From IMG/VR virus record IMGVR_UViG_2711768001_000003: a stretch of 10,003 nt of DNA. The stretch is one strand, 5' to 3'. Position 1 is the stretch's first letter. Each line of letters begins with the position of its first letter. This DNA is from a virus. Lineage: Duplodnaviria > Heunggongvirae > Uroviricota > Caudoviricetes. The position numbers were made by a program. This document shows, piece after piece, positions 3,001 through 6,000 of the stretch.

Positions 3001-6000
3001 CACCCTCTCAAAAGGGGTAAATCAAAATATTCGAAAGGACATGTCTATGAATCGCACGTCTATTGAAAAACTCCCGTCACTTACGCATAACCATCTTCCT
3101 GTCATGACAACAGAGCTGCTGGCTGATTTGTACGGAACAGAGCGCCAGCGTTTGACAAACAATTTCAATCGAAACAAAGAACGGTTTATAGAAGGTAAAC
3201 ATTTTTTCCTGATAGAAGGTGATGCGTTACGAGAGTTGAAGAACGAAAACTCTTTAAGAGTTTCTGTGAAAATTGCCCGTAACGTTCGCTCCCTCATCCT
3301 CTGGACAGAACGTGGCGCAGCCCGTCACGCCAAAATGCTCGAAACCGATCAGGCGTGGGAAGTGTTCGAAAAACTGGAAGACTGTTATTTCAACCAGAAA
3401 CAGCCACCAGCGGCACAAAACACATCTATCGAAAATGATGGATGCGCATTACTGAGCCACTTCGATAAACACGGTCAGGTTGAGTTCACGGAAAAGGTAC
3501 CCGCCGATGCGATGGTATGTACTCTGGAACGGTTTAAATTTTATCTGGAGCAACACGGGTGGATCGTTGCCCGTAAAGAGCAACTGGTGGAGCGGTTGAT
3601 GCGGTTTTAAAAATTTTTTCCGAAAACTTTACGATCGTAAAAAGTTGAATATCCTGTTAAGAGTGGTTACTACGCCACACAGCTTAAACCCGCCGATGAG
3701 CGGGTTTTTTTATACCTGAAAAACGGCACAGGACGTTAAACGTGCTGGTGGTCAGATGAGTTTGCAGATGTGATGACATATGGTTATTATTCTGCCTCCG
3801 GCCCTTTAGCTCAGTTGGTCAGAGCGAGCGACTCATAATCGCCAGGTCGCTGGTTCAAGTCCAGCAAGGGCCACCAACCACCACTAGCTCATCCGGATAG
3901 AGCATCAACCTTCTAAGTTGACGGTGCGAGGTTCGAGTCCTCGGTGGTGGGCCAGCGCCGACTTAGCTCAGCAGGCAGAGCAACTGACTTGTAATCAGTA
4001 GGTCACCAGTTCGATTCCGGTAGTCGGCACCATATGCGGGCATCGTATAATGGCTATTACCTCAGCCTTCCAAGCTGATGATGCGGGTTCGATTCCCGCT
4101 GCCCGCTCCAGCGAGATTTGAGACGAAGGTTGTTATTTGCACTGACACAATATTGTGTGGGAATGTCTGACTCCTTACCATCTCCTGTTCTGTGATGTTG
4201 TTTTGTTGCAGTTCCAGTGCTCTTTTTTCAGCACCAGAATGGTNNNNNNNNNNNNNNNNNNNNNNNNNNNNNNNNNNNNNNNNNNNNNNNNNNNNNNNNN
4301 NNNNNNNNNNNNNNNNNNNNNNNNNNNNNNNNNNNNNNNNNNNNNNNNNNNNNNNNNNNNNNNNNNNNNNNNNNNNNNNNNNNNNNNNNNNNNNNNNNNN
4401 NNNNNNNNNNNNNNNNNNNNNNNNNNNNNNNNNNNNNNNNNNNNNNNNNNNNNNNNNNNNNNNNNNNNNNNNNNNNNNNNNNNNNNNNNNNNNNNNNNNN
4501 NNNNNNNNNNNNNNNNNNNNNNNNNNNNNNNNNNNNNNNNNNNNNNNNNNNNNNNNNNNNNNNNNNNNNNNNNNNNNNNNNNNNNNNNNNNNNNNNNNNN
4601 NNNNNNNNNNNNNNNNNNNNNNNNNNNNNNNNNNNNNNNNNNNNNNNNNNNNNNNNNNNNNNNNNNNNNNNNNNNNNNNNNNNNNNNNNNNNNNNNNNNN
4701 NNNNNNNNNNNNNNNNNNNNNNNNNNNNNNNNNNNNNNNNNNNNNNNNNNNNNNNNNNNNNNNNNNNNNATTGGTGTGCTGGGAAGTCTGCTTCTGGGGC
4801 TTCTGACTTATCTGACAAATCTGTATTTCAAAATAAGAGAAGACAAGCGTAAGGCTGCGAGAGGTGAATAATGTCGCCATCATTACGCAAGGCTGTTGCA
4901 GCTGCTATTGGTGGTGGGGCTGTTGCTATAGCATCTGTGTTAATCACTGGCCCAGGTGGTAACGATGGTCTGGAAGGTGTCAGCTACATACCATACAAAG
5001 ATATCATTGGTGTATGGACTGTATGTCACGGACACACCGGAAAAGACATCATGCTCGGTAAAACGTATACCGAAGCAGAATGCAAAGCCCTCCTGAATAA
5101 AGACCTTGCCACTGTCGCCAGACAAATTAACCCGTACATCAAAGTCGATATACCGGAAACAACGCGCGGCGCTCTTTACTCGTTCGTTTACAACGTGGGC
5201 GCTGGCAATTTCAGAACATCGACGCTTCTTCGCAAAATAAACCAGGGCTATATCAAAGGCGCATGTGACCAGCTATGTCGCTGGACATATGCTGGCGGTA
5301 AGCAATGGAAAGGGCTGATGACCCGTCGTGAGATTGAGCGTGAAGTCTGTTTGTGGGGGCAGCAATGAGCAGAGTCACCGCGATTATCTCCGCTCTGGTT
5401 ATCTGCATCATCGTCTGCCTGTCATGGGCTGTTAATCATTACCGTGATAACGCCATTACCTACAAAGAGCAGCGCGACAAAAACGCAAGAGAACTGAAGC
5501 TGGCGAACGCAACCATTACTGACATGCAGCAGAGACAGCGTGATGTTAATGCACTCGATGCTAAATACACGAAGGAGTTAGCTGATGCGAAAGCTGAAAA
5601 TGAAACTCTGCGCGCTGATGTTGCCGCTGGTCGTCGTCGGTTGCACATCAAAGCAGTCTGTCAGTCAGTGCGTGAAGCCACCACCGCCTCCGGCGTGGAT
5701 AATGCAACCAGCCCCCGACTGGCAGACACCGCTGAACGGGATTATTTCACCCTCAGAGAGCGGCTGATGACGATGCAGATGCAACTGGAAGGGGCACAGG
5801 AGTATATCCGCACTCAGTGCATTAAGTAGCCTTTTTATCGTGGTAAACATTTCGCAGGGTATGAGGTATTTATGCCATCACTAATCCCACGTGCCTGCCG
5901 TAAGCGTGGATGTGCAGGTACAACCACAGACAGTTCGGGTTACTGCGATAAACATCGCGGTGAAGGCTGGGTGCAGCACCAGCGCGGACTGAGCCGCCAC

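Follow-up and report, generated by a model that had tools for sequence, protein, structure and literature searches.

A four-gene tRNA array in the Q-to-lysis slot of a lambdoid prophage segment and its probable role in rare-codon supply

Introduction

Why would a lambdoid phage carry, between its late antiterminator gene and its lysis genes, four transfer RNA (tRNA) genes of which two are almost those of its host? The question is raised by IMG/VR record IMGVR_UViG_2711768001_000003, a stretch of 10,003 nucleotides (nt) analysed here as a whole and called the window. The window is a lambdoid prophage segment of Escherichia/Shigella with all its features on the + strand, and at positions 3800–4110 it holds an array of tRNA genes for Ile2, Arg, Thr and Gly, which sits in the known lambdoid tRNA slot between Q and the lysis cassette. 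Judged from its sequence, the array is a genuine and functional-looking four-tRNA operon, and its most likely role, to which a probability of about 0.55 is given, is rare-codon supplementation that would ease a translational bottleneck while the phage develops. The cassette itself is known already: it is a genuine feature, frequent and annotated in public genomes, and it varies in composition from the well-known late-region tRNA cluster of lambdoid phages. As a feature it is minor, since tRNA cargo 3' of Q is a well-established trait of these phages; what makes it modestly interesting is that the Thr-Gly pair and one Thr allele (U16C) coincide with the newly defined targets of the defence nucleases OLD and PARIS.

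Identity of the four tRNA genes

Exactly four tRNA genes are called by ARAGORN across the window, all on the + strand, and they are as follows.

3800–3876, + strand: tRNA of the Ile2 type, anticodon CAU, CCA encoded (ARAGORN; Rfam 70.5 bits)
3878–3954, + strand: tRNA-Arg, anticodon UCU (AGA/AGG), CCA encoded (ARAGORN; Rfam 56.4 bits)
3957–4032, + strand: tRNA-Thr, anticodon UGU (ACA), CCA encoded (ARAGORN; Rfam 69.8 bits)
4036–4110, + strand: tRNA-Gly, anticodon UCC (GGA/GGG), CCA encoded (ARAGORN; Rfam 64.9 bits)

The Rfam family RF00005 matches all four at 56–70 bits against a gathering score of 29, with E-values of 3e-10 to 4e-14; because these scores exceed the gathering score and ARAGORN calls the same genes, all four belong to the canonical bacterial tRNA class. 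The spacers read off the sequence are, in order, A, GC and TAT (1, 2 and 3 nt). A first-pass annotation, made from the sequence alone, had placed a four-tRNA array at 3800–4110 with these anticodons and spacers of 1–3 nt, and ARAGORN, Rfam and sequence reading reproduce it exactly.

The CAU gene is labelled Met by ARAGORN, and the identical gene is tRNA-Ile in the NCBI annotation of RefSeq genomes. When its body was compared here, it proved to be like that of ileX/ileY and not like that of a methionine (Met) or formylmethionine (fMet) tRNA, which identifies the gene as Ile2 at the level of sequence; alignment gives 8 differences from host ileX and 3 from ileZ of Shiga toxin (Stx) phages, in agreement with the resemblance to ileZ proposed earlier. 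The pairs C4-G69 and C5-G68, which we take to be determinants for TilS, are present, and reading of AUA by this tRNA would need lysidine at C34. The acceptor stem of the Arg gene consists of C1-G72, C2-G71, A3-U70, C4-G69, C5-G68, A6-U67 and C7-G66, with the discriminator base G73 and with A20 kept, so that the C1-G72 pair to which attention had been drawn is indeed there. This gene differs from Stx argN (anticodon UCG) at 13 positions, from host argU at 23 and from argO at 31, and on this alignment it is an argN scaffold bearing the UCU anticodon, as in argO. The suggestion that the array starts in the same way as the Stx cluster is thus right for Ile2, which is homologous, and not for Arg, where an argN scaffold with a UCU anticodon departs from the simple Stx arrangement.

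The last two genes are those that resemble the host most closely. The Thr gene is host thrU with 74 of 76 positions identical, the sole changes being U16C and U20C, both in the D-loop, and the Gly gene is host glyT without any difference (75/75). The expectation that the pair would be nearly identical to thrU and glyT without tyrU between them was therefore borne out, with 2 and 0 differences and with host tyrU absent. Such likeness could mean that the pair is merely flanking host sequence from the thrU-glyT locus, an artefact that is ruled out by the position of the array inside the late region and by the host similarity, which ends at the mature tRNA boundaries. The array is phage-internal, as had been supposed, lying between the Q/antirepressor genes and the lysis genes. 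A related explanation is that the tRNAs compensate for a host tRNA gene broken by integration, or are a leftover of integration or mis-excision at thrU-glyT. Many lambdoid phages integrate into tRNA genes, for instance HK446 at thrW, and tRNA-dependent lysogeny is known in mycobacteriophages (PMC10865867). The array, however, lies in the late operon, far from any integrase or attachment (att) site within the window, and essentially every genome that bears an array also has an undamaged thrU-tyrU-glyT-thrT locus. Taken together with the similarity boundaries, these points disfavour both forms of the explanation, which is regarded as very improbable.

Codon demand and the most likely role

In the proposed role, late-region tRNA cargo would supply four low-abundance decoders, Ile2 for AUA, Arg for AGA/AGG, Thr for ACA and Gly for GGA/GGG, and the cassette would relieve a translational bottleneck in phage development, possibly also for other acquired genes in the lysogen. 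Codon use was compared between 11 genes of the window (2,693 codons) and 42 host core genes (14,748 codons) of one K-12-like strain. Per 1000 codons, the phage genes exceed the host sample 3.0-fold for AUA, 4.3-fold for AGA, 4.9-fold for AGG, 2.9-fold for ACA and 1.7-fold for GGA. When over-use is ranked within amino-acid families among 59 codons, AUA, AGA, ACA and GGA take ranks 2, 3, 5 and 10, and the rank sum of this quartet has P = 0.00025 against random codon quartets and P = 0.003 among A-ending quartets. The same four codons rank 2, 3, 4 and 6 (P = 3e-5) in another prophage (L003), whose array is nearly identical. AGG takes rank 1 in both, and GGG ranks 7 and 11, respectively; both codons are read by the same tRNAs. 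Since the cognate codons rank among the most over-used, rare-codon supplementation is the best explanation of the array. It has also been reported that the lambdoid phage SfI, with Thr(UGU) in the same slot, uses ACA at 17.3% compared with 7.1% in its host (PMC3636060).

Several points weigh against this explanation. HK446, which lacks Ile2, Arg and Gly tRNAs, ranks AGG 1, AGA 2, AUA 3, GGA 5 and ACA 7; the same bias is thus found in a phage without the genes, and the codon test therefore shows demand, not selection of the array for that demand. Lambdoid phages in general share this codon demand, and why the phage of the window keeps its array is beyond the reach of the test. Codon bias as proof of function is weakened by this control, and the earlier idea of a translational adaptation finds support in the codon test itself, which nevertheless fails to separate carriers from non-carriers. 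In addition, the over-used codons CGG, CGA and CCC are unserved by the array, and the host sample comprises just 42 genes from one K-12-like strain. Finally, Asn(GUU), which occupies the same slot in HK446 and SfI, is unexplained by codon bias, so codon supply is not the only force that fills the slot.

Sequence constraint

Constraint was assessed by comparing two array lineages, that of the window and that of E143. Between them Ile2, Thr and Gly are 96–99% identical and the tRNA in position 2 is 86% identical, and the spacers are nearly alike (A in both, GC vs GT, and TAT in both), while identity falls to only 54% in the 110-nt leader and 49% in the 133-nt trailer. The flanks of the array are unrelated between lineages except for a conserved candidate promoter. 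In at least 28 of 80 IMG/VR contigs the Gly gene also carries a compensatory change, C6-G67 to U6-A67. The conservation of the genes despite diverged flanks and this compensatory change indicate selection for working tRNAs.

Distribution and array family

The array is widespread. With a 311-nt query and a threshold of at least 80% coverage, the cassette is found in 603 of 5,426 complete E. coli genomes, or about 1 in 9. The best match is at least 99% identical in ten E. coli records, among them CFSAN029787, where identity is 100% over the full length, and the genes are annotated as tRNA-Ile, -Arg, -Thr and -Gly. The novelty that the first-pass annotation implied for the Thr-Gly extension accordingly falls away, as annotations of this array exist for hundreds of E. 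coli genomes and for several deposited phages. In the literature library that was searched, no description of the Ile-Arg-Thr-Gly composition or of ileZ/argN/argO was found, and only Asn-Thr pairs of the SfI type were discussed.

In IMG/VR, the Thr-Gly junction pattern occurs in at least 120 contigs, of which 80 were analysed; 38 of these have Thr-Gly alone, 20 have Ile2-Lys(UUU)-Thr-Gly (the sister array) and 11 have Ile2-Arg(UCU)-Thr-Gly. The sister array is about 93% identical in the deposited phages vB_EcoS-689R5, vB_EcoM-606R7 and PhiR47_1. Among species-representative genomes, the Thr-Gly junction is seen in E. coli, Shigella flexneri, Escherichia ruysiae, Citrobacter braakii and Enterobacter hormaechei; a pair of enterobacterial type on a 423-nt contig in an assembly of the myxobacterium Corallococcus exercitus (L145, low coverage of 0.67) is most likely contamination. 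Three arrays per genome, in separate prophages, occur in E. coli ECMA0423 (L139, L140, L144) and S. flexneri SFBU1023 (L138, L141, L142); in each case two are of the Arg type and one is of the Lys type, which adds three thrU-like and three glyT-like genes to the host's own.

Members of the family vary in leader, neighbours and anticodon. Loci with Thr-Gly alone (e.g., L017, L018 and L031) have a different conserved leader, in which there are a promoter-like sequence of the TTGAC type and an imperfect inverted repeat, GGTTCYGAGGGG ... CCCYTGARGAACC, which ends a few bases 5' of the tRNA and suggests a structured leader RNA. Related arrays adjoin stx and LT-II toxin genes. In Stx phage phi467 (L012, 1257–3159), stxA and stxB lie directly upstream of Thr-Gly with no tRNA called upstream of stx, so the order of toxin genes and tRNA pair is reversed relative to the classic layout of tRNA followed by stx. 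The position-2 tRNA of the sister arrays (L008 3078–3154; L001 and L002 4095–4171; 20 of the 80 IMG/VR loci) has a UUU anticodon on an argN-like scaffold; it has C33 in place of the near-universal U33, U73 as its discriminator base and, by reading of the alignment, an A51-C63 mismatch, and in at least one genome, 2009C-3133, NCBI annotation passes over it. Such a gene may decode Lys codons, serve as a Lys tRNA that resists nucleases, act as a decoy or be in decay. A thrU scaffold with a shifted anticodon was found as well, as a UCU "Arg" with 3 differences from the Thr gene of the window (L011 1095–1170, SerU-LTIIb) and as a UUU "Lys" in L083 near 3510 and in L126. UCU and UUU on the thrU scaffold, together with UCU, UCG and UUU on the argN scaffold, point to recurrent anticodon switching on a fixed body.

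Thr and Gly as targets of defence nucleases

A possible second role is that Thr and Gly, with the Lys(UUU) of the sister arrays, replenish tRNAs cut by Toprim tRNases of P2-like prophages and P4-like satellites (P2 OLD and PARIS AriB), the U16C/U20C changes being an evasion allele. This is a minority reading, held as possible but tentative, and it is compatible with codon supply. P2 OLD, known for the classic exclusion of lambda-like phages, mainly cuts host tRNA-Thr(UGU) at CNG motifs of its anticodon stem (PMC12445682), and the Thr(UGU) of the window matches this main target. Thr(UGU) and Gly(UCC) are named first among the tRNAs that P2 OLD depletes more than 2-fold (2026 preprint). The same source reports that Thr(UGU) of T4, Bas32, Bas33 and the lambdoid HK446 rescues OLD-sensitive phages, while E. 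coli thrU has no effect; HK446 thus holds, in the slot occupied by the array of the window, an Asn(GUU)-Thr(UGU) pair whose Thr gives rescue in experiment. For PARIS AriB, the prime targets are Lys(UUU) and Thr(UGU), the secondary target is Asn(GUU), and cleavage falls at C40|A41 (PMC12409363). The anticodons of the window therefore coincide with defence-nuclease targets, Thr(UGU) with those of OLD and PARIS and Gly(UCC) with one of the tRNAs depleted by OLD.

The two changes in Thr also bear on this reading. U16C in tRNA-Lys "significantly impaired AriB cleavage", and the resistant tRNA of T5 has C16 (PMC12409363); the Thr of the window departs from thrU solely at U16C and U20C, and in the 80 viral contigs no other polymorphism of the Thr gene comes near those at positions 16 and 20 in frequency, all four haplotypes being seen. 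The Lys(UUU) of the sister array is not host-like and lacks the AriB site UAAUCA. However, the effect of U16C was shown on tRNA-Lys and not on tRNA-Thr, positions 16 and 20 of tRNAs are weakly constrained in general so that drift would tend to fall there, and among the roughly 77 Thr genes of the sampled arrays the most frequent allele, seen in 42, is 100% thrU.

The anticodon arms also speak against this reading. Those of Thr and Gly are the arms of thrU and glyT, with both CNG motifs, A37 and the AriB site U36-A-A-U-C|A41 intact, and arm-swap experiments map OLD resistance to the anticodon arm; in two independent studies, over-expressed E. coli thrU protected little or not at all. Kinship of the Thr of the window with the OLD-resistant Thr of HK446 was considered and ruled out, as the latter is strongly diverged and differs in its anticodon stem. 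By sequence reading no CNG motif is present in Ile2 or Arg(UCU), and these two are not among the main targets named in the OLD and PARIS papers. The counter-defence function that had been suggested for the extra two tRNAs is therefore plausible from the literature, but their host-identical anticodon arms argue against it.

Rare Thr alleles were seen (L021 near 7004, L026 near 4351 and L127 near 451) in which positions 42–43 turn CAG into CAU or CAC and the 3' side of the anticodon stem is broken. These changes are the combination reported for P2-OLD resistance, an altered CNG and a shortened stem; equally, the genes could be pseudogenes. A rather doubtful extension would take the thrU/glyT-derived pair as an early-stage counter-measure, in which lambdoid phages repeatedly copy the host tRNAs most depleted by OLD and PARIS and then diversify the copies; U16C/U20C would be a first step of PARIS evasion, the L021, L026 and L127 alleles would be OLD evasion, and Lys(UUU) on Arg and Thr scaffolds would come from the same process. 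If this were true, the array family would be a natural series from host tRNA genes to nuclease-resistant phage tRNAs. In any case the array is a clean natural test case: two classic rare-codon tRNAs stand next to copies, identical or nearly so to the host genes, of prime OLD and PARIS targets, and the phages are ones classically excluded by OLD. Comparison of alleles (thrU-identical, C16/C20 and stem variants) could tell whether temperate phages keep tRNAs for codon supply or for defence evasion, and could show whether D-loop position 16 is a general contact of Toprim tRNases.

Genomic context and transcription

The features around the array are as follows.

33–1565, + strand: DnaB-type helicase
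1819–2190, + strand: RusA
2159–2566, + strand: late antiterminator Q, 135 amino acids (PHROG phrog_79, anti-termination protein Q-like, E = 6e-52)
2571–2600, + strand: pR'-like late promoter, TTGACC-18-TATATT, right after Q (consensus scan, 10/12 matches)
2594–2646, + strand: c4-a1b1 target element, overlapped by the isrK-type RNA
2607–2683, + strand: isrK-type short RNA ending in an intrinsic terminator, stem 2662–2678 (Rfam RF01394, 77.5 bits; terminator scan)
2709–2792, + strand: C4 antisense RNA
2849–3610, + strand: antirepressor
3686–3715, + strand: strong intrinsic terminator 3' of the antirepressor gene (terminator scan)
3761–3790, + strand: candidate sigma-70 promoter of the array, TTGCAG 3762–3767, 17 nt, TATTAT 3785–3790 (consensus scan, 9/12 matches)
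3800–4110, + strand: tRNA array (ARAGORN, Rfam)
4770–4871, + strand: 3' end of a class II holin gene (alignment to the FDAARGOS_944 holin)
4871–5368, + strand: endolysin, the first readable late gene 3' of the array (PHROG phrog_7, E = 5e-66; alignment to FDAARGOS_944 RrrD)
5353–5829, + strand: Rz
5872–6222, + strand: HNH endonuclease
6335–6838, + strand: small terminase (TerS)
6835–8568, + strand: large terminase (TerL)
from 8671, + strand: portal (matching RefSeq annotation)

None of the complete E. coli genomes searched covers at least 80% of the window, which is therefore a mosaic. A module that is 100% identical in other E. coli prophages begins near 3700, with its left edge at the terminator 3686–3715 (H32 match boundaries). 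The module after Q (2571–3610) resembles the immI region of P1/P7 and the isrK system of Gifsy-1, and an antirepressor under antisense-RNA control is thus placed between the late promoter and the lysis genes; a match to sRNA-Xcc1 at 2926–3009 falls in the 5' part of the antirepressor open reading frame (ORF). On the other side of the array, a run of N of 526 nt occupies 4244–4769 and, aligned to FDAARGOS_944, corresponds to spacer that is not translated and, after it, to two-thirds of the class II holin gene from its 5' end. The matching stretch of FDAARGOS_944 is about 134 nt longer than the mask, which has no bearing on the tRNAs, and ORFs listed over 4062–4883 are artefacts of the N run.

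Two routes of transcription into the array may be proposed. The four tRNAs would share one transcript, started at a sigma-70 promoter of their own that lies 9 nt upstream of Ile2. The TTGCAx hexamer, the 17-nt spacing, TATTAT and a GC-rich stretch of 9 nt are kept in leader types that have otherwise diverged, and in the window the GC-rich 9-nt discriminator TCTGCCTCC runs from the -10 hexamer to the first base of the first tRNA; we read these conserved hexamers upstream of Ile2 as a candidate promoter of the array's own. After induction, Q-modified polymerase starting at the promoter after Q would run past the isrK terminator, across the antirepressor module and past the terminator 3686–3715 into the array. 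From its position, the site 2571–2600 may be the late promoter that feeds this Q-dependent read-through, and the isrK-type RNA is probably the terminated pR' leader that Q-modified polymerase passes through. Cleavage by ribonuclease P (RNase P) and trimming by 3' exonucleases is the established route in closely spaced tRNA operons of E. coli. With spacers of only 1–3 nt, the tRNAs would be separated when RNase P cuts at every 5' end, and 3' exonucleases would trim the trailers of 1–3 nt to the encoded CCA. Host enzymes would then add modifications, such as lysidine by TilS on the CAU tRNA. Against these proposed steps, the sequence analysis establishes which genes are present and what they are, where they lie, that cassette and promoter hexamers are conserved, and that the codons match.

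A promoter of its own also raises the possibility that the array serves the lysogen, being expressed constitutively in the prophage and aiding acquired genes such as virulence genes. The conserved sigma-70-like promoter with its GC-rich discriminator, placed directly 5' of the array and 3' of a strong terminator, is the layout of independently expressed cargo; up to three arrays are present per genome in different prophages, and toxin genes (stx, LT-II) neighbour related arrays. The match between the array and the codons of the phage genes nevertheless suffices alone, and a benefit to the lysogen overlaps with codon supply during phage development without excluding it. As a separate explanation it is considered unlikely.

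Comparison with known systems

The closest classic system is the ileZ-argN-argO cluster of Stx phages (933W type; Stx2a_F349, AP012530). It shares with the window the slot 3' of Q and 5' of late cargo and lysis genes, a homologous Ile2 (3 differences), a position-2 scaffold with C1-G72 (13 differences) and the 1-nt spacer A after Ile2. In contrast, argN has the anticodon UCG where position 2 of the window has UCU, the window has no homologue of argO (31 differences) and carries Thr(UGU)-Gly(UCC) instead, no stx genes follow, and the leaders diverge upstream of about -17. The gene content of the Stx type, Ile2, Arg(UCG) and Arg(UCU), is thus not that of the window, which holds a variant of the cluster and not the Stx cluster itself.

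The host operon thrU-tyrU-glyT-thrT-tufB has Thr and Gly in the same order and orientation. Its tyrU between thrU and glyT, its spacers of 8, 116 and 6 nt, its thrT, its promoter and its leader are all absent from the phage array. The likeness reaches exactly as far as the mature tRNAs do; neither leader, spacer, trailer nor tufB-side sequence is shared, and the phage spacer between Thr and Gly is TAT (3 nt). Extra genes of the ileX, argU and glyT type, and in pRARE also thrU, relieve limitation at AUA, AGA/AGG and GGA in the pRARE/Rosetta and CodonPlus systems. These helper plasmids are engineered and multicopy and carry host genes with native flanks, so that the analogy is one of mechanism only, with no relationship to the array of the window.

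The Asn(GUU)-Thr(UGU) pair of SfI, Sf6, P21 and HK446 is likewise tRNA cargo in the Q-to-lysis slot and includes Thr(UGU), and its publication came with an argument from codon bias for ACA. In HK446 (L014, NC_019714) ARAGORN calls the pair at 35097–35252, in the slot of the window array, where the RefSeq record has no tRNA annotated. The Thr of HK446 is of phage type and has diverged, its anticodon stem is altered, and in experiment it is OLD-resistant, whereas the Thr of the window is essentially the host gene. The nearest relative is the sister cassette Ile2-Lys(UUU)-Thr-Gly, found in the three deposited phages named above and in many E. coli prophages. It has the same four-gene layout, spacer lengths, promoter hexamers and position-2 scaffold as the window; it differs in having a Thr that is exactly thrU, without U16C/U20C, UUU in position 2 and flanks that are about 50% identical.

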